Part shown: piece by piece, positions 1 through 55,265 of the stretch
Numbering within the stretch: position 1 is the stretch's first letter
Layout: every line of letters starts with the position of its first letter
Source: Amphiscolops sp. MND2022
Taxonomy: Eukaryota
Direction: 5' to 3'
NCBI GenBank assembly: GCA_964187785.1
Contig: OZ076409.1
Span: 33,606,001 to 33,666,000 of the forward strand
Length of the DNA: 60,000 nucleotides
The notes under the pieces: generated by a model
Databases searched by the model: none
What the model was told of the DNA's origin: nothing
The model's input: the letters and a program-made list of their open reading frames with translations, nothing else
Program-made: the position numbers and the translations under genes

Positions 1-406
1 TCAAAATAGCGCCATAGGGTTAATGGTACTCACACTCAGTTTATAAATTACCACAAAAGCAACGACTAGCTCAAGGGTACAATTTGGCTAGTTTAACTAA
101 AAGACAATTTATTGATTTCGATAAGTAGAACCAACTGTGTTTAAAAGTTTGGTACGTTAGCACTGGTTAAATGTTTGTTTTAAAAGTTTTCAGCTTTCTG
201 TGCCAGTTTTTCTTTCGGGTTAGGAATTTCCATCACGCTGGGGAGGCTTTCTTCTTCATTGGCAGAGTCTGGTTCGATCTTTGCTATCATGACATTGTTG
301 CCCCATCTGTCGGGCTTTTTTGTTACTCCTGATGAGGTTCGGGATTTCTCCCATTTCACTGTGCCTTGGATTGGCGTAGATTCAAGAGATTACTTTTCGG
401 CACTTT

Positions 407-2098
407 CTATTTCATCTTCGCTGTTTGCGGTTTGATCTTATTGATCTTTGTGTGTCTTTCTTCGTTGTCCTGTTGTTCCTTCACAGGCGGGATTGTTGTC
501 TTTTCTTCTTCTTCATGATGTGGTGATTTGTTTTCTTCCACTTGTTTTTGGTGGCTAATTCCCATCTCTTGACCTATTGCTGTTTTTAGCTTCTTAGCCA
601 CTTTATTCGATTTTGCCTCTTTTTTCCTTTTTGCCATTTTGTTCGCGTTTGCCTTCTTGCTTGGACTTGCTAGCTTACTTCCTGCTGCCGCGTCTCTTTT
701 TGAGTAGATAACTTGATGGCCTGTTTTAGGTAAAACAGTAATGGTGTGGCTTGACTCTCCCACAATCTTTCTCTTTACCTTTTTGAAGGCGCCTTCTAGC
801 TTGGTCCCTCTGACTCTCTCCCTGACCAAGATGGTTGAGTCTGCCTCTTCACTAAAAACTTCGGGTTCTATTTCAATTTGTGGGTCTTGTTCTAAAATAC
901 ATTTTTCTATCATTCGTGATTTTTCCGTATTTGGTTTTCTTCCATTTTGTTTCTCGAATGCAGATTTACCGTCTGGTCCCTTTTCTGATCTTAATGCGAA
1001 CAAGATATTTGAAATGCCATTTTTGTCTTTTGAGATTAATATTTTTTCGTTCGTTCTTAGCCTTTCGTTTATTGTTCTAATCATTCGTTCTACTTTTCCG
1101 TTCCCCCGGTAGTCTCTTACCGGGCAAATGACATGTTCTATCAGTTTTTCTTTACAAAATGTTTTGAACTTTTCGCTTTTGAATGCGGTTCCAGGGACTG
1201 TCCGGACTCTTTTTGGTATACCGTTTTTTGATATGTACTCTACTAAAAATTCGATAACCTTATCCGCCGTGGGATTCGGTAAAAATAGCGCATCTGGCCA
1301 TCCCGAGTGATTGTCAACTGATACAAGTAAGTATTTTTTCTTTAAATTGGCGTTTTGGAAGGGGCCGGCAAAATCAAGAGAAACTTCGTCATTCGGCTGA
1401 TTTGCTTGTGGTAACTTTCCGAATTCTTTTTGAGATTTTATACACTTGAAATTCTTACCTGCTTCTCGGCATTCGCTACAATTTCTCGCCTTGTTGATAA
1501 TTTCTCTATGGATGCGAGGCCACCAGACGTCTGAGGCCTCCCTCAGCATTGCGTCACGTCCTGCGTGGCCAAAGTGTATGGCCCGGAGCATATTCTCCCG
1601 CATATCTTTGGGGATAATGAGGCGGTGGTCCATATATAAAAGACCGTTCGAATCCACAGAAAAGGAATTAAAATTTTCCCTCCACGGTGGGGGTAATCGA
1701 GCAATTACAGCTGTATTTTTATTTAGGACGAGATTGATTACTTTTTGAATTGTCCGATCGTTTTCAGCAATCGCTTTTACGTAGACCGAGCTAATTTTTG
1801 ATTTTGTCAAATCTTTGGCTTCTGCCATTTCAATTAGTTGTTTGTCAACTGCTTTCTCTTTTTCAATTTTGCTGTCTATTTGCATAGGCGCTTGGATTGA
1901 CAAAACTTTGTTTGCTTGCGTATGCTGAACTTTCCTACTTTCCTGCGATTTGATTGGCTTACGCCAATCTGCCAATCGCTTCGTTTCTGGCGTGATCTCT
2001 CTGACTACGTTCACCGTAAACCAATCGTTGAATAATTCTTCTGCTTTTGCTACCGATCCTTCGTATTCTGACGGATGCCTTGACAGGTAATCCGCCAT
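407..2098 (-). pseudogene. Integrase portion of copy A pol
   Basis: ADYLSR (end of RNase H); zinc finger HFGH...CSEC; catalytic D in SLDFAGP; second D mutated (RTVPG versus RTDPG in B); E in KVERMI. Frameshifted from the upstream pol. Confidence 0.9.
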
Positions 2099-2237
2099 TC
2101 CTAGCGTTCTTCCGGGGTATGTACAATTGAGAATTCGAAGGGTAAAAGCCTATCCACCCATCTAGTTAACCTACTAGAAAATGTTTTATTACTTTTGTTC
2201 GATTTTAACACACTTTGCCAGGCTTTATGATCTGACA

Positions 2238-2850
2238 CTATTCCGAATGCGACCCGTACACGTAATTTTTAAAATGTTCTATTGACCATACTACCGCCAA
2301 TAGTTCTAACTCATTGATTGAATATTTACACTCTAATTCATATAAAAATCTAGACGCATATGCTATTGGTTTCCATTTGTTTTCCTCGCATTGCTGTAAA
2401 ACAGCTCCCAAGCCTTGTTTGCTCGCATCACATATAATTCTAAGCGGTTTATTTCTTTTGAAATGTGTTAACTCGGCTACGTTTTTCACTTCGTCGTTTA
2501 CTCTCTTAAACGCTTTTTCGTGTTCTTCCGTCCATTTCCATATCGCGTCTTTCTTTAATATGGTCCTAAACGGAAAGCAAATTGCCGCCAGATCGGGAAT
2601 GAATTTGTTAAATTGATTTACTGCGCCAAAGAATGACCGTAATTCTTTCAAATTTGTCGGTCGTAGTTTTTCTGTAATTCCTTGTACTTTTGAATTTACA
2701 GGCGAAATTCAATGGCTTGTCAATTTAAACCCCAACCACTCAATTTCTTGTTTCGCCACATTACACTTTTCTGCCTTTAGCTGTAATTTTGCCGCGTCCA
2801 ATGTTTTTAGAATTTCCCGCACTTTCTCTACGTGGTTTTGCTTTGTTCTC
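2238..2850 (-). pseudogene. RT C-terminus and RNase H of copy A pol
   Basis: Motifs EWLGFKL, LRSFFGAVNQF, ICDASKQGLGAVLQQ, IAYASRFL and YSINELELLAVVW. In-frame TGA at 2709-2711. Confidence 0.9.
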
Positions 2851-3542
2851 TGGAATTTATAATGGAATTAGAAATTAATCAAATTCAAAAGTTGGAGTTC
2901 GTGGCTGAGGAAATTACCAGACTAGTAGTTTACGTTTATTTACATATTTATAACTTTGCATGGAGTCTGCCAGCAAAATGTACAGGAGATTCTTCGCTAG
3001 TTACAGCTTGATTAGTTAGTAGCCGATTATGGCCGTTTACCATGTTTAGTTTTGCCGTTTTGTTCTGTTACCCTTATTTATCTTAGTTAGAATTTTCGCC
3101 ATATTTGGATACTTAGAATTATTACTTCACGCCATTATATTATTCATTTTTCAATTTTATTGAAGGTTAATTCTGAGTGACTGAAGCCATCTTGAAAGAA
3201 GTTGTTCGACTCGTGCCGTTAATTACACTCAAGCTCACTGTTATTTACCCACTTAACTCAAGTTATTTGTTGATGAGAACTTAGAGATTCTTAACACCTC
3301 TTCTGATGATGGTAGCGAGAGGGGGCAAACACCGCGAAGTCAGAGGATGCCGACTCTCAGAAAACTTCCATTCAGAATGTTTACGACGGATCAGGACGTT
3401 TAACCGAAAGTTCTACCGCCAAATTGAAACTCCGGAAAAATCCTGACTTGGCCTGAAACAGAATTCTATTAAATTTATTCTGATTTGAATCTCGCTAGTA
3501 ATAAGTCGCCTCTCGAACTTCAAACTAGCTAGGAAAATAATA

Positions 3543-3848
3543 ATGCGAAGATTTAATCTTGCTAGACAACCTTTCAACATCGATGGAGCAGATTCTGGAG
3601 ACTCAGATAATTCAGTTACCTACATCTCGAGTGGCGATCCCGATTCATCGGACGTATGGGAATCCTACTGCTCCACAGACACAGAGCAAGAAGTAGCCCG
3701 CATCGAAAGAGAGGTCATCGTCAGCCCAATATTGATCGGTGGGCGGATAATGACTGTGGAAGACGAGGAAGAGGAGATGGTTCCTTGCCCCAGTTCCAGC
3801 GGACAACTAGATGTGGTTATATATGTGCCGGTCTACCCCACGAGATGA
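3543..3848 (+). CDS. Acidic, Ser/Asp/Glu-rich ORF of unknown function inside fragment C (possibly frameshifted into 3811-4020)
   Basis: ATG-initiated 101 aa ORF with coding-like composition, followed by ATTAAA at ~4041. No recognisable domain. Confidence 0.35.
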   Translation: MRRFNLARQPFNIDGADSGDSDNSVTYISSGDPDSSDVWESYCSTDTEQEVARIEREVIVSPILIGGRIMTVEDEEEEMVPCPSSSGQLDVVIYVPVYPTR

Positions 3849-4996
3849 TCCAGAACAGATAACGAGGCTCAGAAGGGAGGCATTCGAAAACGGGCTCAAT
3901 ACCGGCTGTATTCTCTTGATAACACCCGCAGTGTCACAGGCGGCAGCCTGTGACGGTACAGCTATAACAACTACCGCAAGAGACCAGGAGATTATCCCAG
4001 GTACTTTGCCGACATTTTAAATACAAACTAGCAAACATTTATTAAAACTCATATGCATTTTACTATATTCATCTTTTTATAGTTTTGTACCTTAACGGAA
4101 ATCGTATTAGCCTGTTAATAGAACAATTTGGCAAATCCAAATCAAATTGCTAAATCTAATTGGAAGGCGCGGTACCAGTGAATCAAATCAATGTGAGTTG
4201 AGTACAAGTATACGAAAGTGAAGGAAACGTGTTCAAGTGACGCTATATGCTACTCTGAAAGCGTCAATTGAGCACGGAACATCATCCAATCAAAATGCTT
4301 CGTTTCCAGTAATAATAATGCTTTCATCTAGTGATGGTCGAATAAGGCCTGACGGCTCAATATGGTTGTTTTTAATCAGTACTCTAGTCGAACGGCCGGT
4401 TCCAGCTATTTTGTGTAAGGTGAAGCTGTGATACCAATTATCTTTATAATTGACCAGTATTATTGTGTTTGCGCTTCTTGTACCAAATAACCCTTTTTGT
4501 GCAGTATTATCCATTATTACTCTAGATTTAGAATTAAGAGACGGCCAAGACCATTTGACTATTTTTTGCCGATGGCCATTCAAGATTAGGGATTTGGCCT
4601 ATATCGGCCATTTTGTGGAAAGTGCGTTTGCTCTGATCTTATTATAGTAGTAAACTGATAAACTGGATTGTGCCGAAATGTTACATTAGCTTATGCATGT
4701 ACTATTAAATTTTCACACCTTGTTAAATTCTTCAGTGTTTGCGTGGTGGCACGCGTCAACATCGCATTCCGATGATATAACACTGCATTCCGTTGATAGC
4801 TAGTGATATTTGTTGACACTCTAGTGTATATGTTTTCAATGATAAATTGTTTGAAGTTGCAGTTTAAACTAAATACCTCTTGAAATGTTGCTTGTAAACT
4901 TCCCAAAATATGTAGAATATCGGGAAAGTATTTTAAGGTCATGTAGCAAGTGATATTGTACGAATGAGAAGAATGTGACAGTCATGCCTTAGTGGG

Positions 4997-5004
4997 TATA
5001 AATA
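4997..5004 (+). promoter_or_regulatory. TATA box (TATAAATA) upstream of ORF 5128
   Basis: GGGTATAAATAC about 130 bp upstream of the ATG at 5128, an LTR-promoter-like arrangement. Confidence 0.45.
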
Positions 5005-5127
5005 CTCATCACTCACTTGGTCGAGACACGACATTGTAAACTCAAATTGAAAGACGATTCCTCCAAACTCACCAAACATAGTTTTCCGATCTGAAGAAAT
5101 TCAAAGATTATTACTCGGATTTTCTCA

Positions 5128-5710
5128 ATGCCTACTACCAGAAAACAAAAGAAAGCTAGGAAGTCAAGAAGACAAGAGATGCTTTCTGAGATTGAGAATC
5201 TAGACATAATGCTTGGTGAAAACCATTTTGATACAATAGAAAGAGAAGAAAGTTTAAATGGCAATCTTTCTAGAAGGCCTGAAAAAGCCGATAGCAATAA
5301 CTTTGAAAACGATGATGAAAATACGTATCTAAATTCAGGAGTTATCAACCCAGGTATTAACGCCAATTACGGTCGAAACTCAGTTAGTGCCAACTCTAGT
5401 GCTGAGAATAAAAGATTGTCAAGTGAATTGAACTCGAGGATATCTAGGGAAATGGATGAGATGATGAACAGTGTCAGAGTCCAAATCCAAAGGGCCATTA
5501 ACGATGCTATTTTCAATCAGGTTTTACCCCAGATTGAAAATGTCATCATGGCCGGTTCAGGACATTAGACCAAGAAAGGATGGAACGTTCCGACCGAGGG
5601 CCCTGAAACTAATACCGAAGTTCTGCGAAATGAAAAGGCCAGAAATAATTCGAAAAGTGAGCTTGTCCAAAACGGTTTCAGTGACGGAGCCATAGATAAT
5701 CCTTACGACA
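5128..5710 (+). pseudogene. Gag-N-like ORF (MPTTRKQKKARKSRR...) with one premature TAG at 5566-5568; the frame stays open to 5710
   Basis: Basic N-terminus and a coiled-coil-like segment (LSSELNSRISREMDEMMNSVRVQIQRAINDAI). After the TAG the frame reads TKKGWNVPTEGPETNTEVLRNEK...DNPYD with no further stop. Confidence 0.5.
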
Positions 5711-5807
5711 GTATTGGACGTTCGAGATTGATCGAGGCTATTCGTTTCCTTCATGTTGACAAAAAGTGAATTTGTTCGGATTGAAGAAGTTGAGGAAAGC
5801 GGAGAAA

Positions 5808-5954
5808 TAACCACTGTGTAACGGTTTTCTTAGAAAGGGTCCCACTAAAAATATGCCCTCTGCTGTGCTTACGGGTCTCAATTTTGTACGAGATGGATGT
5901 ACTGTCAGCAAAACGTTTTCCTTCCAGCTGTTTGCAACATAGCTAATGATCCGT
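5808..5954 (+). repeat. Left copy of the 147 bp flank duplication bracketing element B
   Basis: TAACCACTGTGTAACGG...AGCTAATGATCCGT matches 11256-11402 with 2 substitutions. Confidence 0.95.
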
Positions 5955-6162
5955 TTTTATAGTCTAGCTGAATTGGCTAAAGAACTAGATAGACGAAAGA
6001 CGATGAAGTGTGAGAAACTGTATTGTATGGCGTAACTGTCTGTATTGGCAGATTGTTTTCTTTTGCCACTTTTACTATTTTTGACAGGTTGTTAATAAAT
6101 AGTGTAATTAATTATTTTCCCACTTTTGTTTTATCAAGCTGTACAACAAGTGCTCTACCACA
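5955..6162 (-). repeat. 3' LTR of element B
   Basis: Matches 11048-11255 with about 4 differences. On the minus strand it starts TGTGG and ends ...TATAAAA rather than ...TATAACA. Confidence 0.93.
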
Positions 6163-6173
6163 CTCCCCTCTCT
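6163..6173 (-). other. Polypurine tract of element B
   Basis: Minus strand AGAGAGGGGAG immediately precedes the TG of the 3' LTR. Confidence 0.88.
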
Positions 6174-6400
6174 AGAATAGGAGGTGAAGGGGGAACGATT
6201 TACAAAGTACTTCAAGAATCTCAAAATAGCGCCATAGGGTTAATGGTACTCACACTCAGTTTATAAATTACCACAAAAGCAACGACTAGCTCAAGGGTAC
6301 AATTTGACTAGTTTAACTAAAAAGACAATTTATTGATTTCGATAAGTAGAACCAACTGTGTTTAAAAGTTTGGTACGTTAGCACTGGTTAAATGTTTGTT

Positions 6401-9400
6401 TTAAAAGTTTTCAGCTTTCTGTGCCAGTTTTTCTTTCGGGTTAGGAATTTCCATCACGCTGGGGAAGCTTTCTTCTTCATTGGCAGAGTCTGGTTCGATC
6501 TTTGCTATCATGACATTGTTGCCCCATCTGTCGGGCTTTTTTGTTACTCTTGATGAGGTTCGGGATTTCTCCCATTTCACTGTGCCTTGGATTGGCGTAG
6601 ATTCAAGAGCTGACTTTTCGGCACTTTTTTTTCATCTTCGCTGTTTGCGGTTTGATCTTCTTGATCTTTGTGTGTCAGACTTTCTTCGTTGTCCTGTTGT
6701 TCCTTCACAGGCGGGATTGTTGTCTTTTCTTCTTCTTCATGATGTGGTGATTTGTTTTCTTCCACTTGTTTTTGGTGGCTAATTCCCATCTCTTGACCTA
6801 TTGCTGTTTTTAGCTTCTTAGCCACTTTATTCGATTTTGCCTCTTTTTTCCTTTTTGCCATTTTGTTCGCGTTTGCCTTCTTGCTTGGACTTGCTAGCTT
6901 ACTTCCTGCTGCCACGTCTCTTTTTGAGTAGATAACTTGATGGCCTGTTTTAGGTAAAACAGTAATGGTGTGGCTTGACTCTCCCAAAATCTTTCTCTTT
7001 ACCTTTTTGAAGGCGCCTTCTAGCTTGGTCCCTCTGACTCTCTCCCTGACCAAGATGGTTGAGTCTGCCTCTTCACTAAAATCTTCGGGTTCTATTTCAA
7101 TTTGTGGGTCTTGTTCCAAAATACATTTTTCTATCATTCGTGATTTTTCCGTATTTGGTTTTCTTCCATTTTGTTTCTCGAATGCAGATTTACCGTCTGG
7201 TCCCTTTTCTGATCTTAATGCGAACAAGATATTTGAAATGCCATTTTTGTCTTTTGAGATTAATATTTTTTTGTTCGTTCTTAGCCTTTCGTTTATTGTT
7301 CTAATCATTCGTTCTACTTTTCCGTTCCCCCGGTGGTCTCTTACCGGGCAAATGACATGTTCTATCAGTTTTTCTTTACAAAATGTTTTGAACTTTTCGC
7401 TTTTGAATGCGGTTCCAGGGTCTGTCCGGACTCTATTTGGTATACCGTTTTTTGATATGTACTCTACTAAAAATTCGATAACCTTATCCGCCGTGGGATT
7501 CGGTAAAAATAGCGCATCTGGCCATCCCGAGTGATTGTCAACTGATACAAGTATATATTTTTTCTTTAAATTGGCGTTTTGGAAGGAGCCGGCAAAATCA
7601 AGAAAAACTTCCTCATTCGGCTGATTTGCTTGTGGTAACTTTCCGAATTCTTTTTGAGATTTTATACACTTGAAATTCTTACCTGCTTCTCGGCATTCGC
7701 TACAATTTCTCGCCTTGTTGATAATTTCTCTATGGATGCCAGGCCACCAGACGTCTGAGGCCTCCCTCAGCATTGCGTCACGTCCTGCGTGGCCAAAGTG
7801 TATGGCCCGGAGCATATTCTCCCGCATATCTTTGGGGATAATGAGGCGGTGGTCCATATATAAAAGACCGTTCGAATCCACAGAAAAGGAAATAAATTTT
7901 TCCCTCCACGGTGGGGGTAATCGAGCAATTACAGCTGTATTTTTATTTAGGACGAGATTGATTATTTTTTGAAATATCCGATCGTTTTCAGCAATCGCTT
8001 TTACGTAGACCGAGCTAATTTTTGAATTTGTCAAATCTTTGGCTTCTGCCATTTCAATTAGTTGTTTGTCAACTGCTTTCTCTCTTTCAATTTTGCTGTC
8101 TATTTGCATAGGCGCTTGGATTGACAAAACTTTGTTTGCTTGCGTATGCTGAACTTTCTTACTTTCCTGCGATTTGATTGGCTTACGCCAATCTGCCAAT
8201 CGCTTCATTTCTGGCGTAATCTCTCTAACTACGTTCACCGTAAACCAATCGTTGAATAATTCTTCTGCTTTTGCTACCGATCCTTCGTATTCTGACGGAT
8301 GCCTTGACAGGTAATCCGCCATTCCTAGCGTTCTTCCCGGGGTATGTACAATTGAGAATTCGAAGGGTAAAAGCCTATCCACCCATCTAGTTAACCTACT
8401 AGAAAATGTTTTATTACTTTTGTTCGATTTTACCACATTTGCCAGGCTTTATGATCTGACAATATTCCGAATGCGACTCCGTACACGTAATTTTTAAAAT
8501 GTTCTATTGACCATACTACCGCCAATAGTTCTTACTCATTGATTGAATATTTACACTCTAATTCATATAAAAATCTAGACGCATATGCTATTGGTTTCCA
8601 TTTGTTTTCCTCGCATTGCTGTAAAACAGCTCCCAAGCCTTGTTTGCTCGCATCACATATAATTCTAAGCGGTTTATTTCTTTTGAAATGTGTTAACTCG
8701 GCTACTTTTTTCACTTCGTCGTTTACTCCCTTAAACGCTTTTTTGTGTTCTTCCGTCCATTTCCATATCGCGTCTTTCTTTAATATGGACCTAAACGGAA
8801 AGCAAATTGCCGCCAGATCGGGAATGAATTTGTTAAATTGATTTACTGCGCCAAAGAATGACCGTAGTTCTTTCAAATTTGTCGGTCGTAGTTTTTCTGT
8901 AATTCCTTGTACTTTTGAATTTACCGGCGAAATTCAATGGCTTGTCAATTTAAACCCCAACCACTCAATTTCTTGTTTTGCCACATTACACTTTTCTGCC
9001 TTTAGCTGTAATTTTGCCGCGTCCAATGTTTTTAGAATTTCCCGCACTTTCTTTATGTGGTTTTGCTTTGTTCTCTTGGTTACGATTAAAATGTCATCGA
9101 TGAATACGAACACTTCTGTAAATTTTGCTAATAAATTATCCATTACTTTTTGAAATTCTGTTGGCATAACCGACAGACCGTAAAAACCTGTTACGAATCG
9201 ATACGTTCCGGTGGATTCTCCACCGATTATCTGAAAATTGCAGTGTTTTGCTGTTAATTGATGCAAGGGGACTTGGCCGTATGCGTAGGTCATATCGACT
9301 GATGAAAACCACGCTTCGCCTTCTTCAGTATCCAATTTTTCTGCGACCATATCTAATAACTTATCTAAATTTGGCATTTGGTATTTATCTTTATCGATCG

Positions 9401-11048
9401 CTTTGTTCAGCGCTCTAGCGTCTAATGCAATTTTCACTGAACGGTCCTTTTTGAACGTGATGACTGTTGGCTGAATGAATACGTCATCCTTTATTTCGTC
9501 AATTTTTTCGATATGACCTTCCTTTAGTAAACAGCTAATTTCTTCATCCACTGCCTTTTGCAGTTGGATTGGAATTCGTCTCCCTTTTTGTTGACTTACT
9601 TCCGCTTCTGACTTCAAGTTTATTTTTATTTTGTAATTGTTTACTTTACCTTGCCTTTTGAATAGTTCGCGAAATTCGGTGACTAGTTGCTTAGTTTCTA
9701 CGCTTAGTTCACTTTTCTTCTCTATAGAACTGGCTTCTAACTCACCCTTTTCGGTTGTAGCTTGTATCGGAGTGTTGTTAGCCATTCTCTGCCAATTATC
9801 GACTTCGATCCACTTCGAGCAATTAGGATTCTCGCCTTTTTGATGTAGCTGTCATTCACCTGTAGTTCGCAAAAGACATATCCCAGCAATTTCAGTGGTT
9901 TTCCATTGAAATCCACGTATCGCTCGCCTTCTATCATCTTCCGCACTGGCAACTCCTTCCTCTTCATGATTGATTTTATTTCGTCCAAACCGAAAATTGT
10001 TACAGGGGAGCCCGTATCTATCATGGTTTTGAAGCAGTTGCCAATAATGAATCCTTCCATATAGAATGGTTTTGAATCATTTTCGCTTCCTTCAACATTT
10101 AGCACCATGTAGTCATCTTCATCTTCATTGTCGCTTTTCATCCTGATCCACCAAATGCACTCTGTTGCCAAATCTTCTGGGTTTGCCATTTTTTGGGCAA
10201 GTGTCCTTTTTCTTCTGATTGCAGACTCGTTCTAAATAGCCTTTTCGCCCGCAGTAGTTACACATTGCTTCGGGTGCCTTGCAGCGTTTCAAGTGATCTA
10301 GGGTGAAATTACCCGCACCGCATCTCCAGCACTCTCTTGTGTTGTTGCTACTAATCGCGCAAATAGGTTCTTCTTTTACGTTGGGCTCTTGATTGATGTA
10401 CCCATACGATTTTTGGCGTTTTGGCCCGTCCTCAAAGGCTATCGCAAATTGTAGGGCTTCAGCTGGCGTTTCTTTAGGTTCTGTGCAGAGCTTTTCTTTC
10501 ACTTGTTTATTCGCCATATTTAAAACGAAAATGTCGTGAACTAGGCTTTCTGTTTGGTCACCGAAATTGCATCTCGCCGCGAGTCCGTTTAATGCATTCC
10601 AGAATTGATTTAGTGTCGCCGCCGTTTTCTGTTTTCTCGAAAGAAACGTGTGTCGATCTAATGTCCGGTTACGTCGAATTTGGAAGCATTCTGCGCAATT
10701 TTGCATAAGTTCCCGAAGTTCGATCAGTAGAATGTTTATTCGCGGGAACTTGTCCATCAGCATTTTTCTTGCATTTTTACCAATTGAGATTTAGAGTAAA
10801 CTTACGACTTTCCTTTTTGCAGGGATTTCTTCTAAATTCCCTATCAGAGCCGCCGCACGTGGATTCTGTTGGTCAGCCTCCCTTAGCACTTCGGACACTG
10901 AGATTGAGTGTCTTGCCAGTGTTGCGACTTCGAACAATTGAATCCATTGCTCCCAGTCGTATCCAGGGGTCTTTTCAGCATCCTGCCAGAAGTAATTCAG
11001 TCCTGGTAGTGGGGAGTTTGAATGATCTTCATCAGCGCGCAGCGCCAT
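6401..11048 (-). pseudogene. gag-pol of element B, broken by several stops and frameshifts
   Basis: Gag Cys motifs CWRC...H...C and CNYCGRKGYLERVC; protease MIDTGSP; RT SSVDMTYAYGQV and FIDDILI; RNase H CDAS; integrase HFGH/CSEC, LDFAG, RTDPG, KVERM. ORF fragments: 10791-11048, 10125-10763, 9737-10189, 8934-9785, 8532-8876, 6577-8436. Confidence 0.93.
11035..11047 (-). other. Primer-binding site of element B (TGGCGCTGCGCGC), probably tRNA-Ser-type
   Basis: TGG directly follows the CA of the 5' LTR. The tRNA identity is inferred from resemblance to the complement of tRNA-Ser 3' ends. Confidence 0.8.
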
Positions 11049-11255
11049 GTTATAGTCTAGCTGAATTGGCTAAAGAACTAGATAGACGAAAGAAGATGAA
11101 GTGTGAGAAACTGTATTGTATGGCGTAACTGTCTGTATTGGCAGATTGTTTTCTTTTGCCACTTTTACTATTTTTGACAGGTTGTTAATAAATAGTGTAA
11201 TTAATTATATTCACACTTTTGTTTTATCAAGCTGTACAACAAGTGCTCTACCACA
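11048..11255 (-). repeat. 5' LTR of element B
   Basis: TGTGG...TAACA on the minus strand, 208 bp, followed by the PBS. Confidence 0.95.
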
Positions 11256-11402
11256 TAACCACTGTGTAACGGTTTTCTTAGAAAGGGCCCCACTAAAAAT
11301 ATGTCCTCTGCTGTGCTTACGGGTCTCAATTTTGTACGAGATGGATGTACTGTCAGCAAAACGTTTTCCTTCCAGCTGTTTGCAACATAGCTAATGATCC
11401 GT
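11256..11402 (+). repeat. Right copy of the 147 bp flank duplication bracketing element B
   Basis: Matches 5808-5954 and starts exactly at the LTR boundary. Confidence 0.95.
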
Positions 11403-11714
11403 ATTCTCCAGAAGCTACTAATTACAGTGAAACAGACTGCTTTATACCTTATATAGACTGTCTTTCTGTTTATACCTGAGTCGGCTATCAATCGTATTAA
11501 ATGTGTGATCACCGATGTTCCACCAAAATCCAATCGATAGACCATTGAGATAGCATATCCGCCTTTTCTGGTAAAACATCGGCGAAAACTATGCAACTTT
11601 GTATGTTTCTTACCAAATATTACAAAAACCAAGATGGGAAACATTGATCTTATTAACGACATCTCATCAATTTACTTCTGGCTCATCATCATTTATAATT
11701 TTGTTTCCAATTTC

Positions 11715-14832: not shown

Positions 14833-14926
14833 CGCCGACGAAAATTCACAGCCATAATGTATTATATGTTTGATGATACGTATCATAAAACATATAATAC
14901 ATTATGGCTGTGAATTTTCGTCGGCG
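14833..14926. repeat. 94 bp spacerless palindrome (47 bp arms, 1 mismatch)
   Basis: CGCCGACGAAAATTCACAGCCATAATG...GATAC|GTATC...CATTATGGCTGTGAATTTTCGTCGGCG. Confidence 0.92.
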
Positions 14927-14940
14927 AATTTGCGTTGGTG

Positions 14941-15193
14941 ATAGCTTAAGTTTCGAAATTAGTTCTATATTACTTGAGCATAATCTCTGCAGCATGGTCT
15001 CCAGAATCATTGTTTGCCCAGATTTAGAGAACAATTTCTTCAACTTGAAACGTTTCCGATATATCGGTTATATATCGAAAACTTTTCAAGTTGAAGAAAT
15101 TATTCTCTAGATCTGGGCAAAAAATGATTCCGGAGACCATGCTGCGGAGATTATCCGCAAGTAATATAGAACCAATTTCGAAACTTAAGCTAT
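14941..15193. repeat. ~250 bp imperfect palindrome (arms ~124 bp, tiny loop), MITE-like
   Basis: ATAGCTTAAGTTTCGAAATT...CGATATAT / ATATATCG...AATTTCGAAACTTAAGCTAT. Confidence 0.88.
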
Positions 15194-15223
15194 AACTCAG
15201 CTAAAACATAATAACATATAACT

Positions 15224-15821: not shown

Positions 15822-16589
15822 GGTTTAGTATCATTTCACCCCACGTTCATTTCACCCCACATCATTTCACGCCATGTCATTTCACCCCACAACCATTTCA
15901 CCCCAGGTGCATGTCACCCCTCGTTCATTTCACCCCCAAATTTATTTCACCCCACGTTCATTTCAGCCCACAGTCATTTCAAACCACATTTAAATTATCA
16001 AATGCGTCTCAGATTAATGACTAAAGCCACCCAATTTCAATCTTAGCGCTAATAGAAAGGCGTCTTCAATTCAATTACCAATAAGATAAACAACCGATGC
16101 TTGCTATGTGAACCACAAAATCGGAACCGAAAAGTTTTACTTATCGGAATTGTGATATGTCTGAACAGGGCGCTTAAAAAATCATTTATTTCTGTCAATC
16201 AAAATCTACAATTATGGATGCTGCCAATCTTCAGCGAAAAATTGCTATTCGGTTTTCCTACGGCAAGAAAAATCCAACAGGCCAGAAACTGACAATCAAA
16301 TCAAAGCTGATTCAAAGAGAGTAGGCATCAAAGTTTAATTGTTAATTAAGATGAGACGCTTTTGTATAATTACAATATGTTGTGCAATGAAATTGGGGTG
16401 AAATGAACGTGGGGTGAAATGAATTTGGGGTGAAATGAATGTGGGGTGAAATTTATGTGGGGTGAAATGAACGTGGGGTGAAATGATATGGGGTGAAATG
16501 AATGTGGGGTGAAATGTATGTGGGGTGAAATGAACGTGGGGTGAAATGATACGGGGTGAAATGATTTTGGGGTGAAATGAACGCACACC
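15822..16589. mobile_element. Foldback-type non-autonomous DNA transposon with minisatellite (CATTTCACCCCA) inverted arms
   Basis: Left array 15831-15980 and inverted right array 16390-16580. Termini GGT...ACC are flanked by a perfect 8 bp TSD, AAGAAATT (15814-15821, 16590-16597). Confidence 0.85.
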
Positions 16590-23081: not shown

Positions 23082-23868
23082 TATTGATATGCCGAAGGAA
23101 AAACGGCTGGTTAATCAAAACCACTAAGAGCTCACGCTTAAGAAGTGTTATTTTGAGCAGTGTGATATATTCTTTTACAATTCAACTTAGGTCCACCTAA
23201 AATCTAAAAATGTTTTTTGTTCACTGAATTTCTGCATTTCTCAAGGTTTCAGTGCTACGGTAAATTACACCATCTATAAGAGTAGATGCCAACAATATGA
23301 CGCGTTTATACGCTATTTGCTAAATTTCCTTATTGTTAGTGGCTTAGCTTTTGCATTCAAACACGATTATTTTGCAGGGACTCGTAATTAGGTTTTCAAA
23401 AGTGCTTGAGCTTGAAATTTGAAACGGCAATTTTTTCACCATTTGTTTTCCTCTGCTGTGAATCCCCCTTCATAAGCGTGTTTTCCATTCGCGTCACTGT
23501 TTTTTCGCTTTTTGCGGGAGCTTTGACGCTTGTTGTATCTCGTTCAAAATAAAAGTTATCTAAAGTGTCTTTCAGGTCATTACAAGCTTGTACAAAATAG
23601 AAATGGCGCCATTGAAATTCTTCTTCTTTCATCTCGTGCGAAAATGACGGCGAAATGGAAGATAAATAATTGAAAAGAGATGAGAAAGAAGGAAACGTGG
23701 AGACAAATAACCAACTATGATTACAATTGGGATGTTTGTTTTATTGTTTTTCATCAAGGCTTAAAGCAACAATTTATGTTTCCCACAAGTAAGGCAAAAA
23801 TTAAACGGTCGATATTATGGTTGTGCTACTAATGAAATTTTTCTTCTTACAGCGCTGGTATTGAATCA

Positions 23869-24072
23869 AGAAATCGATGCACTAACTTCGCACAAGCTAA
23901 TTTTGGGAGCGCAATAATAGATGTTCTAAATATGAGAATGGCAAAAACCCACGCTTTTCAAATTATTAAGTATGATTATGAATTTGAAAAGCGTGGGTTT
24001 TTGCCATTCTCATACTTAGAACATCTATTAAGGCGCTCCAAAAATTAGTGCGAAGTTAGTGCATCGATTTCT
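23869..24072. repeat. ~200 bp imperfect palindrome (arms ~95 bp)
   Basis: AGAAATCGATGCACTAACTTCGCAC...ACCCACGCTTTTCAAATT / AATTTGAAAAGCGTGGGT...GTGCGAAGTTAGTGCATCGATTTCT. Confidence 0.88.
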
Positions 24073-24626
24073 AGCATCAATGTATTCATTTTAGATGCTT
24101 CCATTGTGCAACACGCCTGAAGTAGCTACCAAAAAAGGCAATGGAAGTGATTGAGATAGATCTACGTCAAAGGTCAATTCAATAATGGATTATTTTCTTC
24201 ATTTAAATTTTTTTATATATATATAAAATATATTTCGAAAAAAATTCCTCACATGTTTCATACTCGTGATTAGCTCCATTGAGAAAAACACAGAAAAATA
24301 GGACACTTCTCATCTTTCTGTATCTTTCTCAAAGAAGCTAATCGCAAGAAGGAAAATGTCAGGAATTCTTTTTCGAATTATTTTTGCAGTGAGCCCCAGT
24401 TTAAAAAATTCTGTAAGAGACAAATTGCTCGTAATAAATTACTTTTAATGAGAGTAAGCTTTTTGGTTTTCCAGTAGCTCTAACTATTTGTTCAGCATAG
24501 CTCCACTACAACTCAATTAAACCGTAGGTACCATGCACGAGACAAGGACTGGCTGAGTATCTACATAAATTTTTATTACCTCCGAAGGAGAGACGAATCA
24601 ACTTAATCGAAGACGGTGGGGGTAAG

Positions 24627-35320: not shown

Positions 35321-36927
35321 CGACAATAAAAATGCTACAATTTGCCAAACAAGTTCAATATATTTTTGTCCTACAAGCTCACCAGATGAATATTTACTAC
35401 GTGTTTGCAATCTATGTTCAAATCCCTTGAAAATGTGAAAACTTTTACAGAATTTGCTTAAAGTAGTCATAAATGGACGTTTTAGCTTTTCGGGTAAATT
35501 TAATTTAACCTACTCCAAAACCTAAACGCTACGGGATAGCTAACTGGCTCTTCGTTGATTTTTGGTGACATTCTACAAAAAATGTCTAAAAAGTCTACCA
35601 CGATTTGAAAATCAATTTTTTTGTTATTTCGGGACATTGTTCCAACGGACCATTGCTGGTATCTCTTCGGAAAAGTAACCTGGATAGCCCGTTTTTTCGA
35701 CTTGGAGCGTTTTGGATGTTTTGCCTCACGAAATCAAGATAAAACTGTAAAGAATTTGCATTGAAGAGTCGAGAAACTGAAATTTAATATTTCAAGTGCT
35801 TTGCAGTTAAGTTGGATCTTTTCTAGAGCAAACCAACTCTTTCTCTTTTTGAAACCTGGATAACTCGTTTCTTTACAGTGGAAGATTTTTCCTCTTTTGG
35901 ACATTCTAACCCACAGAAAACTCGTTAATTGTACAAAAACTGCCAAAAAGGTGTTGAAAAAAGAACTTTTCGAACTTCTTCACTATTCTGGTGTCTGGTG
36001 CTATTTTGTGACACTTTCAAAGCCACAATTTTTGGATTTCTCTTCAAAAAAGCATCTGGAATAGCTGTTTTTTTCGTCTGGATTTTTTGACTAATTCCTT
36101 CACGAAAATTTTGAAAACTACAAAAGTTGCAAAAAGTAGTTTAAAAATTGGATTTTTTGTCACAAGTGTTCTATTTCTGCTTGGTAAGGTGAAACAATTT
36201 GGATACTGATATATGTTTTATGCCAAACTGTACTTAAAACTCCAAGAATGCAACAATGGTTCCGTATCAATACTAATCTAATGTACATATATATGTATAT
36301 AAATATGTATAAACAAAAAGAGGAACAATTATAGTTTGTTGATCAATCAATGTTCTTTTTCAGTTTGATTGGCATTTGGGTGAACCGAATAAATTTGGAC
36401 GCGGCACTACACCATATTACAACAAGTTTGGGCTAACTTTGAGACACTTTTTCAATATAAAGTTTCGGATTTTCATCGAAAAATAGTCTTGATAACTAAA
36501 TCATTGATCGTGGACTTTTTGGTTACTCCAACCCACAAAATTATTCGATAACTGTACAAAACCCGCAAAAAAAAGTTGAAAACGAGAAAAATGTGGAAGT
36601 TTTGACTGTTTTTGGTGTCATTCTGTGGTCAACTCGGAAAAAAATAAAAAATCTCCACGAATACATATCGCAGGAAATAAAGGTTATACCAGTTGAATTC
36701 TATGGGTGAACCCATTGAGTTTGATTTTGGGTCATGGCAAATCTTGGGAAAAAGACGCGGCTCAATACGGGCGGAAAGTAACAAAATAGACCTGGAATGG
36801 GTTTTAATTGTTTAGTCGTCTGGCCTTTCTTTTGGTCTCATGAGACAATTTACACCAAGTTCAAGCGGATCCTAGCTTGATTTCTACTTTTCATCAGTTT
36901 TTCTTTTACTTCCACTTTTTTTAGCTT

Positions 36928-39900
36928 CGCTCCGAGTAATCACCAATCAGGTGATTAGCCATCATTTTCTTTTCTCGAGAACAATAGAGATTTTGCAAAG
37001 CCACAGAAACGTTCAAACGTTGAACAAAATATGTGTACTACTAGGAAAAATGGAAACGTTTATCATTTTCCAATTCAACCCATGCATTATTTGGAGACAA
37101 AACTCAGCGTTTTACAACATAAAGTTTAGTCCCTCTGAGTAGTAATGTCTATAACAACCTACTAAGAAGTATCAAACATTGTACACAACGCTAACATAAA
37201 GCCCAAACTGCGAAGATTTCAATCATGGCATCGAAAAATCGAAGAACTGAGATTTAGTCTTCCGAAGAATGCTGGGAAAATAAGCTTTCATATTCACCGA
37301 AGTGTTCAAGATTGAATGAATTGTAGCCAAACGTGTCGTAAACAAGGAGTTTTGTGTTTTTTGTCCACATTTTAGATTACTTTTCCCTTATGAAACCTCA
37401 ACTGTTAGCTAAACTTTCCATTGCTGTTGCTCAGCCTGCCGAGTTTTCCGATTTGGGACAAAGTTCAAAATTTGGAGAAACAATGAGGTATGTTGACAAC
37501 GATTGGGGAAACAGGATTTTTGATTCTTTCGTTGTCGAATTCAAGGAAATATTTGGCAACAAGCCTACACGTTCAGGTCAGTCGTAGCTCTTGTCTAGAC
37601 CAAAAATAGAACAAAACTGGTAAAAACAAAATCGGGTTCTTTATTCTTTTTTGCTTCACTTCGAAGCACATTTCCAACAAGAAACTGCAGTTACATTTCC
37701 GGTAACGGTACTGGATAACTCGTTTTCCGTCCTTGAACCTCACAATATGCTACAGATTAGCTATTTCCGTCAAATTGGAAAATTTTGAATTTTGTCACCA
37801 ACATCTTTTGAAACAGTACAAAAATTGCATTGGAAGATCGAATAATTAAACATTTTTGTTACTTATTTTTTTTAGTTTGGGGTCATTTTAATGTCAACCA
37901 AAAATGTCCAAAATTCTCTTGAAATACATATTAAACAAAAAGAAGAATATGTCAGTTTGATTTTATGGGTTTCTATGGGTAAATCCCTTCAATTTATGTA
38001 TACTTTTGGAGTTAAAAGGAGTACTAAGTAGAATGAGACTTAGATCGTTTTCTCACTGACTATGCTAAGAGTCTTTTCAAGCTAGAGGTTACGAGCTTTC
38101 TTGAAACCTAACTTTGATGAGTTGAAACGTTTAGAACCTGAATCTGCGGTAGCACAGTCCCAACACATTAATCACTACACAATGGTAAAAAAACATGAAA
38201 CTTTGGTTCCTTTTATACCCCTTTTGATGGAAACCTTCTTTCGTCCGAAAACACATCGCTTAACTTTTCGCTTCTCACCTCCAGAATCAACAACAAAATT
38301 AATTTTTGAGAAAAACATTCGGAAGATGAATTTATGACTTTGGTTCACTCCGAGTAATCACCAATCAGTTGACTAGCCATCAAGTTCTTTTCGCGAAAAC
38401 AATAGAGAATTTGCGAAGCCACGAACACGTTCAAACCTTGAACAAAATATGTGTATTACTGTGAAAAGTGGAAACGTTTATCTTTTTTCAATTCAACTCT
38501 TGCATTGTTTGGAGACAAAACTCAGCGCTTTCAAGATAAAGTTTAGTCGCTCTGAGTAGTAATGTCCATAGCAACCTACTAACAAGTATCAAACATTGTA
38601 CACAACGCTAACATAAACCCCAAACTACCAAGATTTCAATTATGGCATCAAAAAATCGAAACACTTAGATTCAGACTCACGATGAATGCTGGGAATATAA
38701 GCTTTCATATTCACCGAAGTGTTCAAGATTGAATAAATTGTAGCCAAACGTGTCGCAAACAAGGAGTTTTGTGCTTTTTGTCCAAATTTTAGATTCCTTT
38801 TCCCTCATGAAACGCCAACTGTTAGCTAAACTTTCCATTGCTGTTGCTCAGCCTGCCGAGTTTTTCGATTTGGGACAAAGTTCAAAATTTGGAAAAGCAA
38901 TGAGGTATGTTGACAACGAATGGGGAAACAGAATTTTTTGATTCTTTCGTTGTCGAATTCGAAGAATTATTTGGCAACAAGCCTACACGTTAATTTTTCG
39001 TGCTCGAACCACACAATAATCCACTGATTAGCTATTTCCGTCAACTTGAAAAGTTTTGAATTTTGTCACGAACATCTTTTGAAACAGTACAAAAATTGCA
39101 TTGAAAGATCGAATATCTAAACAATTTTGTTACTTTATTTTTTTTATTTTGGGGTCATTTTAATGTCAACCAAAAATGTCCAAAATTCTCTTGAAATACA
39201 TATTGAACAAAATGAAGAATATGTCAGTTAGATTTTATGGGTTTCATGGGTAAATCCCTTCAATTTGTGTATAATTTTTATAATTTTGGAGTTATTAGGA
39301 GTACTAAGTAGAATGAAACTCAGAAAGATCTTTTTTTGACTGACTTTGCTGAGAGTCTTTTCAAGGTAGAGGTTACGAGCTTGCTCGAAACCTAATTTTG
39401 ATGAGTTGAAACGATTAGAACCTGAATCTGCGGCAGCACAGTCCCAACACATTAACCACTACACAATGGTAAAAAAACATAAAACTTTAGTTCCCTTTAT
39501 ACCCCTTTTGATGGAGACCTTCTTTCGTCCGATAACACATCGCTGAACTTTTCGCGTCTCACCTCCGGAATCAACAACAAAGCTTTATTTTGAGAAAAAC
39601 GTTCCGAAGATGAATTTCTGACTTTGGTTCACTCCGAAAAAATCACCAATCAGTTGATTAGTCATCAAGGTCTTTTCTCGAAAACAATAGAGAATTTGCA
39701 AAGCCACGGAAACGTTCAAACGTTGAACAAAATATGTGTACTACTGTGAAAAGTGGAAACGTTTATCATTTTTCAATTCAACCCATGCATTGTTTGGAGA
39801 CAACACTCAGCGTTTTCAAGATAAAGTTTAGTCGCTCTGAGTAGTAATGTCTATAACACCCTACTAAGAAGTATCAAACATTGTACACAACGCTAACATA

Positions 39901-41905
39901 AACCCTAAACAGCCAAGATTTCAATCATGGCATCGAAAAATTGAAAAACTTAGATTCAGTCTCACAGAAATTGCTGTGATTATAAGCTTTCATTTTCACC
40001 GAAGTGTTCAAGATTGAATAAATTATAGCCAAATGTGTCGCAAATAAGGATTTTGTTTTTTTTGTCGAAAGTTTAGAGTACTTTTTCTCTACGAACCGCA
40101 TACTGTTAGATAAACGTTTCATTACTGTTGCTCAGCTTACCATGTTTTCTGATTCGTAACAAAGTTCAAAATTTGCGAACAAAATGGACCTATGTTGACA
40201 ACGATTGTGCAAACAGGAAAATTTGATTCTTTCGTTGTCGAATTCAAAGAAATATTTGACAACAAACCTACACGTTCATTCCAGTGGAAGATCTTGTCTA
40301 GACCAAAAATGGAACAAAACTGGTAAAAACAAACTCGGGTTCTTTATTCGTTTTTGCTTCACTTCGAAGCACATCTCCAACAAGAAACTGCAGTTACGTC
40401 TCCGGAAATGGTACTGGATAACTCGTTTTCCGTCCTTGAACCTCACAATATGCTACAGATTAGCTATTTCCGTCAAATTGGAAAATTTTGAATATTGTCA
40501 CGAACATCTTTTAAAAGTACAAAATTGCACTAAAAGCTTGAATATTTAAACATTTTTTTTACTCAAATTTTTTAATTTGGGGTCATTTTGATGAAAACCA
40601 AAATAGTCCAAAATTCTCTTGAAATGTATAATAAACAAAACGAAGATTATGTCAGTTGGATTTAATGGGTTTCTATGGGTAAATCCTATCAATTTGTGTA
40701 TAATTTTGGAGTTAAAAACTCTTCTTCCCCATATGCAATAGTGGCGGAAAATGCTGATTATAAAAAATCAAACTGGGCCGGTTTGATGACTTTCTGTTCG
40801 AGTACTCACGAAAACTTTACGCAAGAAGGTAGGAGTACTAAGTAGAATGAAACTTAGAATCATCTTTTTCTGACTGACTTTGCTGAACGTCTTTTTATGG
40901 TAGAGGTTACGAACTTGCTTGAAACCTAACTTTGATGGGTTGAAACGATTAGAATCTGAATCTGCGGTATCACAGTCTCAACACTTTAACCACTACACAA
41001 TGGTCAAAAAATCATGAAACTTTGGTTCGCTTTATACAACTTTTGTTGGAAACCCTCTTTCGTCCGAAAACACATCGCCGAACTTTTCGCTTCTCACCTC
41101 CGGAATCAACAACAAATCTAATTTTTGAGAAAAACGTTCGGGAGATGAATTTAAGACTTTGGTTCACTCCGAGTAATCACCAATCAGTTGATTAGCGATC
41201 AAGTTCTTTTCTCGAAAACAAAAGAGAAATTGCAAAGTCACGGAAACGTTCAAACGTTTAACAAAATATGTGTACTACTGTGAAAAGTGGAAACGTTTAT
41301 CATTTTTCAATTCAAACATGCATTGTTTGGAGACAAATTTCAGCGTTTTACAAGATAGAGTATAATCGCTCTGAATAGTAATGTCTATAACAACCTACTA
41401 AGAAGTATCAAACATTGTACACAACGCTAACATAAACCCCAAACAGCCAAGATTTCAATCATGGCATCGAAAAATCAAAAAACTTAGATTCAGTCTCACG
41501 AAGAATGCTGGGAATATAAGCTTTCATATTCACCGAAGTGTTCAAGATTGAATAGATTGTAGCCTAACGTGTCGCAAACAAGGATTTTGTGTTTTTTGTC
41601 CATATTTTAATGTACTTTTTCCTTATGAAACGCCTACTGTTAGCTAAACTTTACATTACTGTTGCTCAGCCTGCCGAGTTTTCTGATTTGGGATAAAGTT
41701 CAAAACTTGAAAAAAAATTGAGGTAAGTTGACAACGATTGTGGAAACAGGAAGTTTTGATTCTTTCGTTGTCGTTTTGTCGTATGGAGACAAAACTCAGC
41801 GTTTTACAAGATAAAGTTGTACACAAGATAAAGTCAAACATTGTACACAACGACAACATAAAGCCCAAACCTCCAAGATTTCAATCATGGCATCGAAAAA
41901 TGGAA
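36928..41905. repeat. Tandem array of ~1.3-1.5 kb units (about 3.5 copies) inside GT31 intron 3
   Basis: Unit start CTCCGAGTAATCACCAATCAG at ~36930, 38348, 39632 and 41167. Units are colinear and closely similar, with indels. Confidence 0.92.
39413..39469 (-). repeat. tRNA-like (SINE-head-like) module repeated in each full array unit (also ~38129-38185 and ~40947-41003)
   Basis: Minus strand CCATTGTGTAGTGGTTAATGTGTTGGGACTGTGCTGCCGCAGATTCAGGTTCTAATC, with A-box-like and B-box-like motifs. Confidence 0.45.
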
Positions 41906-53572: not shown

Positions 53573-53786
53573 TGTGGAATGCAGAAACCAAACTGCCATA
53601 TTACATAACCGTCACATCGGACAGAGAGTTGTTTAGAACATTATTTACTAACAAACTCTAATTGTTTCTGTCCTATTTATGTTGATAGCTTTATAGATCA
53701 TACATTTGTTTGAGAATACTTTAGAACGGTTGCTAAAACACTTACTCCTCCTAATCTGTTTTTAACTGAGATGTTAGATCTTAACA
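53573..53786 (+). repeat. 5' LTR of element D
   Basis: TGTGGAATGC...GATCTTAACA, matching 59057-59270. Confidence 0.96.
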
Positions 53787-53805
53787 TGGCGCAGTAAGCA
53801 AGATT
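53787..53805 (+). other. Primer-binding site of element D (TGGCGCAGTAAGCAAGATT), tRNA-Ser-like
   Basis: Immediately follows the 5' LTR and resembles the TGGCGCAGT.. tRNA-Ser PBS class. Confidence 0.82.
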
Positions 53806-53852
53806 TTACCTTTTTACCCCATAAAACACCCTTTCTTAACCCTATCAACAAA

Positions 53853-55265
53853 ATGACCACAGCAACAAAGATACAACTACCGTATCTAGAGGATACCGGT
53901 CTCGACGGAAAGAAAATATATACACCAAGAGAATGGACCGAACGATTCCGGCACTACGTAAAAAGAATCCACAATATCGACATCAAACAAATATTGACGG
54001 ATGACACGGTACCCACCGACGGAGATTGGAACACAAAAGAACCAGAAATCAGGCAGGATTTTATCTGGAGCGCCGGACCGTCGGCTATCGAGATCATCAC
54101 CAAAGGGGAATTCAATACAGACCCCGATACGATCAAAACCGAAAAGTTAATACAACTATTCCGGGAACACTATATCCCCAAAAGAAATACATATCACAGC
54201 CGTGGAGATTTCTTCTGGGCAAAACAAGAAGAAAACGAAACACCCGAAGAGCACTGGAAAAAACTAGTAACACTGGAGAAAAACTGCGATTTCAAGAACA
54301 TAAAGCAAGAAGATATCCTCATATCAAAATTTATCACAAGTATAACCGACAAAAAACTTCGGGAAAAACTTATCCGTGAAAAAACCTTAGACCTGAAAAC
54401 AACCATAGAACTCCTTACCCAAAACAGCTACGACCGCCGAAACAAACAATCCACCATACCACCCGCTTTGGCGAAGGACAAAGAAATAAAACAAGAGCCC
54501 ATACAAAGAATACAAACAAAACAATACCGTAACCAACCGAAGAAAAACAACTGCGGATTCTGCGGACAGCAAAACTGGACACCACAACATAACTGCCCGG
54601 CAAAAATGACAAAATGCAATAATTGCCAGAAAATAGGACATTTTGCACGAGTATGCCGCGGAAAACCGAACAACAACACAAGAAAAATCAACTACCTGGA
54701 AGACATAACATCAGAAGAAGACGATGAAGAAAGTGGACCCGAAGAAATACACCAAATCACACAAATAAACAAAATAATACCGGACAACAACGACCATTAC
54801 GGAGTAGAAATAAAAATAAACGGAAGAAAACAAAAATTCATCATCGACACCGGCTCTCCGGTTAGCATCATGCCAAACGATAAAACCCTATACAAACCAG
54901 AAGATATCCAACCGCTGAAGGAAAGATATCAAGACGTAAACAAGAACGAAATAAAATTCCTAGGGAAAGTATGGGTAAATATCGAATACAACAACACACA
55001 AACCAACCTACCACTCCTGATCACAAAAAGAACCGACATAACACCATTATTAGGTGTAAATTGGCTGAAACAATTACCAATCACTATCAACGGCATCTCA
55101 TTGAACAAAGAAACCAACCAATCAGAAGCAGCGATACATACAAAATTCAGAAAGCTATTTGAAACAAACCACACAATCAAGAATACCGAAGTGAAAATAC
55201 AAATCAAACCGGGGTGCTACCCAATACAGCAGAAAGCACGACCAATCACCTACAAGACGATGTAA
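53853..55265 (+). CDS. Gag plus aspartic protease of element D (frameshifted just before RT)
   Basis: CGFCGQQNWTPQHNC and CNNCQKIGHFARVC Cys motifs; protease FIIDTGSPVSIM...LLGVNWL. Confidence 0.92.
   Translation: MTTATKIQLPYLEDTGLDGKKIYTPREWTERFRHYVKRIHNIDIKQILTDDTVPTDGDWNTKEPEIRQDFIWSAGPSAIEIITKGEFNTDPDTIKTEKLIQLFREHYIPKRNTYHSRGDFFWAKQEENETPEEHWKKLVTLEKNCDFKNIKQEDILISKFITSITDKKLREKLIREKTLDLKTTIELLTQNSYDRRNKQSTIPPALAKDKEIKQEPIQRIQTKQYRNQPKKNNCGFCGQQNWTPQHNCPAKMTKCNNCQKIGHFARVCRGKPNNNTRKINYLEDITSEEDDEESGPEEIHQITQINKIIPDNNDHYGVEIKINGRKQKFIIDTGSPVSIMPNDKTLYKPEDIQPLKERYQDVNKNEIKFLGKVWVNIEYNNTQTNLPLLITKRTDITPLLGVNWLKQLPITINGISLNKETNQSEAAIHTKFRKLFETNHTIKNTEVKIQIKPGCYPIQQKARPITYKTM

Follow-up and report, generated by a model that had tools for sequence, protein, structure and literature searches.

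The most probable account of an unusual insertion in Amphiscolops sp. MND2022, in which a Ty3/gypsy-type LTR retrotransposon (element B) lies between two near-identical 147-bp copies of host DNA, is one-ended integration finished by host repair. The locus lies in the window, which is the whole 60,000-nucleotide stretch that was analysed (G000:C1:33606001-33666000). Half-site integration followed by host repair had been offered as one reading in the initial annotation of this DNA, and it is now favoured over the alternatives, with support from five other copies in the same genome that carry long duplications. It is proposed more tentatively that about one in ten Ty3/gypsy insertions in this animal may be completed by host repair with a host duplication of 60-900 bp, that about one in five may be non-canonical, and that each family may have its own weak end (U5 in the family of B, U3 in a second family) while the terminal CA is intact.

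Long duplications around LTR elements are already known from HERV-K, XMRV and HIV, and B's locus repeats that observation. The value of the present analysis lies in the recurring series and the family-specific weak end and not in the single locus of B, where the defective CA is incidental. If the proposal is true, routine LTR retrotransposition would steadily generate duplications and deletions of host DNA, which are discarded by TSD-based annotation, and the affected copies would be a natural record of host repair completing half-integrated cDNA. If the junctions hold, they would provide an inherited, drug-free data set on the repair of half-integrated LTR cDNA and on the cause of one-end failure. 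The series also suggests that pipelines demanding a 4-6-bp duplication, such as that of PMC7497039, drop these events.

The 147-bp duplication and element B

The features of the locus, in window positions, are the following.

1..2851, minus strand: interior of copy A, forming the element portion of a 6.2-kb tandem duplication (sequence comparison)
2852..5807, plus strand: host flank copied in the same duplication as the element (against the copy left of the window, 35 substitutions over 2,938 bp)
5801..5806, plus strand: GGAGAA just outside the left 147-bp copy, left arm of a 6-bp inverted repeat
5808..5954, plus strand: left 147-bp host copy, against the U5 end of the 3' LTR (sequence comparison)
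5955..5956, plus strand: TT at the LTR terminus, private to B (TG in copy A and 10/10 other copies)
5955..6162, minus strand: 3' LTR of element B, 208 bp (sequence comparison)
6163..6173, minus strand: polypurine tract adjoining the 3' LTR (read from the sequence)
6577..8448, minus strand: open frame with integrase zinc-binding (PF17921) and core (PF00665) domains (Pfam)
8532..8933, minus strand: RNase H-like part, PF17919 and PF17917 (Pfam)
8934..9851, minus strand: reverse transcriptase, PF00078 (Pfam and solved relatives)
9737..11069, minus strand: gag and protease region, broken, with DTG and CCHC-like motifs seen by eye and without a Pfam match
11030..11047, minus strand: stretch starting TGG with no spacer after the 5' LTR, which we take from its sequence to be primer-binding-site-like
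11048..11255, minus strand: 5' LTR of element B, intact at both ends (sequence comparison)
11256..11402, plus strand: right 147-bp host copy, flush with the U3 end of the 5' LTR, with 2 substitutions (sequence comparison)
11404..11409, minus strand: right arm of the GGAGAA inverted repeat that brackets the 147 bp

The repeat of 5808-5954 at 11256-11402 had been reported in the initial annotation together with a clean right junction and a left junction that reads TT where the other LTR has TG, and all of this was borne out when the copies were compared (E about 2e-70) and both LTR ends were read. The duplication and the TT end are confirmed as real, with the junctions as assembled. The right junction is flush, and the host flanks outside the two 147-bp copies are unlike each other except for one common A. 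There is no N in the window. A query of the 147 bp plus left flank (5700-5954) gave 3 matches in the 1.07-Gb assembly, all at B's locus, and the right flank gave a single match; an empty allele with a single 147-bp copy was not found in this assembly. The first five bases of the 147 bp (TAACC) and the last five (TCCGT) are unequal. Microhomology at the junctions amounts to 1 base at U3 and 0 at U5, with no filler and no truncation, and priming by microhomology was set aside on these counts. The GGAGAA inverted repeat stands at equal offset from both junctions (chance 0.0016, spotted post hoc), but it was rejected as a general signal because it is not present in the four long-duplication copies of the second family.

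Element B is 5,301 bp long and lies on the minus strand, and its two LTRs (5955-6162 vs 11048-11255) have 4 differences. The element resembles Ty3/gypsy elements (Metaviridae) in its direct TG...CA LTRs, its internal primer-binding-site-like and polypurine tracts, the order of reverse transcriptase, RNase H and integrase on the minus strand (PF00078, PF17919/PF17917, PF17921, PF00665), and the 5-bp duplication in most copies of its family; the U5 end of B is the sole deviation in the LTRs and tracts. Ty3-G Gag-Pol is among 3 solved relatives of the reverse transcriptase (E 5e-16). A difference from the Metaviridae is that the reading frames of B are broken. On these sequence features B is classified as a Ty3/gypsy-type LTR retrotransposon. 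Its short LTRs, abutting primer-binding site and CCHC-like gag may place it near the Mag lineage.

Copy A and the origin of the TT end

A third copy of the 147 bp (149 bp, G000:C1:33605586-33605734) lies to the left of the window, directly against the 3' LTR of copy A (G000:C1:33605735-33605942), which begins with TG and has its terminal dinucleotide intact. Both belong to a 6.2-kb unit, containing host flank, the 147 bp, the 3' LTR and the element as far as the reverse transcriptase, that is present head to tail twice (G000:C1:33602641-33608851 vs 33608859-33615076, 98.3% identity). The join of the tandem units at window position 2851/2852 cuts the element inside the reverse transcriptase. 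When A and B were compared with ten other copies, 22 derived sites were common to both, with 21 substitutions private to A, 26 private to B and 3 ambiguous. The 98.3% identity over 6.2 kb and the 22 shared derived sites rule out copy A as an independent insertion. Additionally, the two LTRs of B and the LTR of A carry a common subtype-site combination that is absent from the other 26 ungapped LTRs compared, so a single cDNA is the likely source of both. As judged from these comparisons, A and B are one insertion that was doubled by the 6.2-kb tandem duplication. The initial annotation had held that an intact 3' LTR of copy A flanked by a normal 5-bp TAACC duplication would point to a secondary rearrangement. 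The LTR is intact, but it is flanked by the 147 bp and not by TAACC. The joining of an empty site to a filled site by later rearrangement is not favoured.

Because copy A is the same insertion and has both the 147-bp flank and TG, the long flank existed together with an intact end. The T at 5956 is among the 26 private changes of B, and G is found at this position in A and in 10/10 other copies. A point change that struck B alone, later and independently, is the likely origin of the TT end. With a prior of about 3% for a later hit on one of the four terminal bases, this is a modest coincidence. The TT/TG difference could conceivably also stem from a heteroduplex formed at insertion or from edge conversion in A, though either requires additional steps. 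The initial annotation had linked the defective CA to the long duplication, such that a cDNA with a defective CA at U5 blocked integrase and caused the duplication, and this link is not supported. The TT is located at the end inferred to be host-joined, the prior of about 3% for a later hit is low, and the XMRV integration with a 273-bp duplication had lost its CA (available text of PMC2857682). However, the same junction is intact in copy A, so that a defective end at the time of insertion would need heteroduplex or conversion right to the LTR edge. Two older copies of B's family with TT ends (L072 and L083) have 5-bp duplications. The LTR termini are intact in each of the five remaining copies with a long duplication. 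A defective CA is the least credible of the explanations considered here.

The 6.2-kb tandem duplication contains the U5 junction and so came with or after the insertion; it is probably later, with the ages of the two events inseparable by divergence (Fisher p 0.55-1.0). The 147-bp copy of A differs from the left copy of B by 5 substitutions and a 2-bp insertion, which is above expectation (p about 0.003). Divergence between A and B is also higher in the junction zone (11/355) than in the rest of the unit (79/5852, p=0.018).

Long duplications in two families

Loci of B's family were collected by sequence searches of the assembly, and the counts are lower bounds. Young copies were those with two LTRs and an LTR at least 93% like that of B (n=24, with B's locus counted in). 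An exact 5-bp duplication is present in 20 of the 24, which agrees with the fixed 4-6-bp target-site duplication of Ty3/gypsy elements, but it is not found at B. The remaining four copies are B's locus, L045, L053 and L044. There is a 59-bp duplication with 12 bp of filler partly repeating neighbouring host sequence at L045, a 5-bp duplication with host-templated inserts inside the LTR end at L053, and 382 bp of extra element DNA without a duplication at L044. The odd end is U5 in all three of these polarised copies. The 24 do not include 12 older copies that gave two LTR matches, nor 7 loci at which just one LTR was usable. A duplication of 5 bp flanks nine of the 12 older copies (read by eye in three cases; one of the nine is a solo LTR within a duplicated segment) and is missing from three, and a long direct duplication was found in none of the 12.

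Several loci have features of their own. At L053 (G000:C13:23196254-23201580) two short copies of the host flank lie within the first bases of the LTR end, and these inserts resemble the templated insertions of polymerase theta. Both L045 (G000:C6:25415422-25420540) and L074/L075 (G000:C7, near 30918193) lie in palindromic host DNA, and the flanks of L074 are 100-bp inverted arms at 87%. At L065-L067 (G000:C13:4411426-4420573) a copy lies in a 44-bp tandem array with a partial 3.66-kb tandem copy on its 3' side. The layout there appears to be the same as that of A and B, either much younger or an artefact. The tandem part is 99.9% identical whereas the element's own LTR pair is 97.6% identical, which indicates that tandem duplications can postdate insertion.

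A second Ty3/gypsy-type family, younger than that of B, was used as a control. A young member in the window (53573-59270) has 214-bp LTRs that are 99.5% identical and a 5-bp duplication with one mismatch. This family yielded 39 two-LTR copies, of which 30 carry 5-bp duplications (a single mismatch in two of them) and 9 lack one. The count excludes two solo LTRs, each between 5-bp duplications, and four loci that are incomplete, among them two whose U3 ends are odd. Long duplications were found at four of the nine (372, 449, 710 and 893 bp), and no duplication was found within 10-14 kb at the other five. U5 is intact in 9/9 of these copies, U3 is damaged in 7 and no polarity is seen in 2, so that the odd end is U3 in 7/7 polarised copies. 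Two further loci of the survey are unusual. L156/L157 of the second family (G000:C13:54762000-54781800) is inverted internally over a stretch that takes in most of the 5' LTR, yet its 5-bp duplication is normal. L129/L130 (G000:C7:28659567-28665504) has no 5-bp duplication and is flanked by GATGAT+AC on one side and GT+GATGAT on the other.

The five long duplications other than that of B, located at C6:25415422 (L045), C5:2876659 (within L118/L117), C6:26089495, C11:53225835 and C11:60195804, include the following from the second family.

L152: 372-bp duplication with 9-bp filler
L141: 449-bp duplication with 19-bp filler
L151: 710-bp duplication with 1-bp filler
L118/L117, G000:C5:2875516-2883507: 893-bp host duplication with 15-bp filler and 235 bp of element DNA

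L118/L117 is the clearest one-ended case, as the 235 bp come from the polypurine-tract side of the element and are added beyond the U3 end, and the LTRs are identical.

When both families were pooled, 50 of 63 young two-LTR copies had 5-bp duplications, and long duplications (59, 147, 372, 449, 710 and 893 bp) were present in 6/63 (95% interval 3.6-19.6%). This becomes 6/75 with the older copies counted and 5/62 without B's locus, which prompted the survey. Non-canonical copies amount to 13/63 (11.5-32.7%). All six long duplications abut one LTR end without a gap; at the opposite end, the five other than B's carry filler, extra element DNA or both. The polarity of the odd end differs between the families (7:0 for U3 in the second family vs 0:3 in B's family, p=0.008). 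No longer duplication was found within 10-14 kb of the copies without a TSD (L049, L044, L142, L144, L136, L129/130 and L110/109), and these may reflect host deletion or later rearrangement.

The divergence between the duplicates was compared with that of the LTR pair of the same element. The values are 1/710 with 0/214, 4/893 with 0/214, 5/372 with 2/215, 8/449 with 3/214 and, for B, 2/147 with 4/208. The two youngest long-duplication loci differ from the rest (p=0.001), and the rank correlation over all six loci, a small sample, is positive (Spearman 0.70, p=0.12). For B itself the ages of duplication and insertion are compatible in a test of low power (p=1.0). Since duplicate divergence tracks LTR divergence, within these small numbers, origin at insertion fits and mixed haplotypes fit poorly. 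The 147-bp duplication of B most likely arose at insertion.

Mechanism, alternatives and known systems

Under one-ended integration, integrase would join the U3 end only, host synthesis would run 147 bases past the nick, and the extended host end would be joined bluntly to U5 by host repair, the route being fill-in synthesis past the nick and then end joining or recombination. The 6.2-kb tandem duplication would then yield copy A, and the TT would arise still later as a point change in B only. The timing, the integrase-joined end and the repair route at B are what we infer indirectly. In a weak target-site profile built from 24 canonical copies, true sites have a median of 0.48 (quartiles -0.40 and 2.16) and random sites a median of -1.82. 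The U3 cut site, with 2.23, resembles a true target, and the U5 join site, with -0.81, does not. These scores and the U5 bias of B's family suggest that integrase joined U3 at B. The U3 end of B is flush at an intact LTR terminus, and the duplication is far beyond the family norm (147 bp vs 5 bp) and as old as the insertion at the low power of that comparison. Truncation, filler, extension or microhomology joining, the usual mark of one-ended integration, is absent at B and present in the five sister copies. Host repair is thus not directly visible at B, where the proposed U5 polarity is borrowed from the sister copies. The excess divergence of A's 147-bp copy and the 6-bp inverted repeat likewise count against the preferred reading.

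The main rival is that integrase joined both ends, uncoupled and on opposite strands 147 bases apart, and that gap filling made the duplication. Both junctions of B do indeed meet the LTR termini flush, free of filler and with 0-1 base of microhomology, an A stands three bases before the cut at both sites, which is the strongest preference of the family (30/48 half-sites), and the 273-bp XMRV case is described as uncoordinated staggered breaks in the available text of PMC2857682. However, the U5 site of B scores below most true sites, and the lengths of the other duplications (59, 372, 449, 710 and 893 bp) rule out 147 as a nucleosome length and give nucleosome-sized spacing no support. Integrase adds neither filler nor extra element DNA, yet one or both are seen at one end of each of the five other long duplications, and uncoupled joining is considered unlikely. 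It is distinctly improbable that a normal 5-bp insertion gained the 147 bp through a later rearrangement such as a template switch, gene conversion from an empty allele or the 6.2-kb event. The locus has since been rearranged by the 6.2-kb tandem duplication, the A-B junction zone is more diverged than the rest, and pseudo-TSD models of such a kind are raised in the available text of PMC5488345, but both breakpoints lie exactly at LTR termini. Normal insertion into a pre-existing tandem repeat is ruled out, as it needs equal ends where the 147 bp has TAACC and TCCGT. The idea that tandem duplications are common in this genome was weakened by a count of only 3 head-to-tail duplications (at least 300 bp and at least 95%, within single stretches) in 1.09 Mb of fetched DNA, so six duplications at LTR ends are not chance.

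Very little probability is given to an assembly artefact in which filled and empty haplotypes were mixed. Gaps do occur elsewhere in the assembly (200 N in L050 and L070), and near-identical tandem units, such as the 99.9% one on C13, can be artefacts. However, the window is without a gap, the left junction is present twice in diverged form (A and B), element B is full length, and duplicate divergence varies with the LTR age of each element. More remote still is recombination between two insertions 142 bp apart on homologous chromosomes that duplicated the DNA between them. Flush, intact ends on both sides would be expected from this, as found, but pairs within about 150 bp are expected at 1e-4 for 40 copies and 0.01 for 400, one rare subtype is common to the LTRs, and the fillers at other loci would be unexplained.

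One-ended integration finished by host repair, the preferred reading, has precedents among retroviruses. In the available text of PMC5041404, integrase joins one end of HIV-1 or ASLV DNA and host enzymes join the other, with outcomes that include a truncated end, extra viral DNA, host duplications of hundreds of bases, and deletions; short homology or a truncated end is usual but not invariable. All of these forms are present among the 13 non-canonical copies here. The HIV-1 and ASLV events were provoked in cultured cells through inhibitors, a weak integrase or mutation of an end, whereas those reported here are natural and have intact LTR termini, and B's locus is without the usual short homology. 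For XMRV, the available text of PMC2857682 gives one 273-bp duplication in 15 unselected integrations, a frequency similar to this series, at an end that lost 5 bases including the CA. The CA was lost there, whereas the end at B was originally intact, judged by copy A.

For HERV-K (HML-2), the available text of PMC5488345 gives 8/451 sites with a duplication above 10 bp (13-450 bp, searched over 4-500 bp), and two long duplications of 111 and 250 bp have validated pre-integration alleles. These are likewise inherited LTR elements between near-identical long host duplications. They are endogenous retroviruses, whereas the elements here are Ty3/gypsy-type, with long duplications in 6/63 young copies, of up to 893 bp and mostly with filler, and with the empty allele not found in the assembly. 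The long-duplication rate looks higher here than in HML-2 (p=0.004 for 6/63 and 0.008 for 6/75; 0.013 and 0.025 without B's locus), a comparison that is affected by the different method and rules of the HML-2 survey, which stopped at 500 bp. No report of long duplications at Ty3/gypsy insertions was found in literature searches that covered mainly open-access main texts.

Other repeats were observed in and around the window. A 1.7-kb repeat at 3975-5710, with a copy at 89% identity some 25 kb to the left of the window, begins near TGTGAC, ends with ACGACA and has a 157-residue open frame without a Pfam match; it is possibly an LTR-like unit. A tandem array of 1.3-1.5-kb units at 88-91% occupies 36926-41905, and a 3.5-kb tandem duplication (98.4%) lies about 40 kb left of the window at G000:C1:33560292-33567292. 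Inverted repeats resembling hairpins, and inverted arrays built from a 16-bp unit, are found at 14833-15196, 15828-16583 and 23860-24081.
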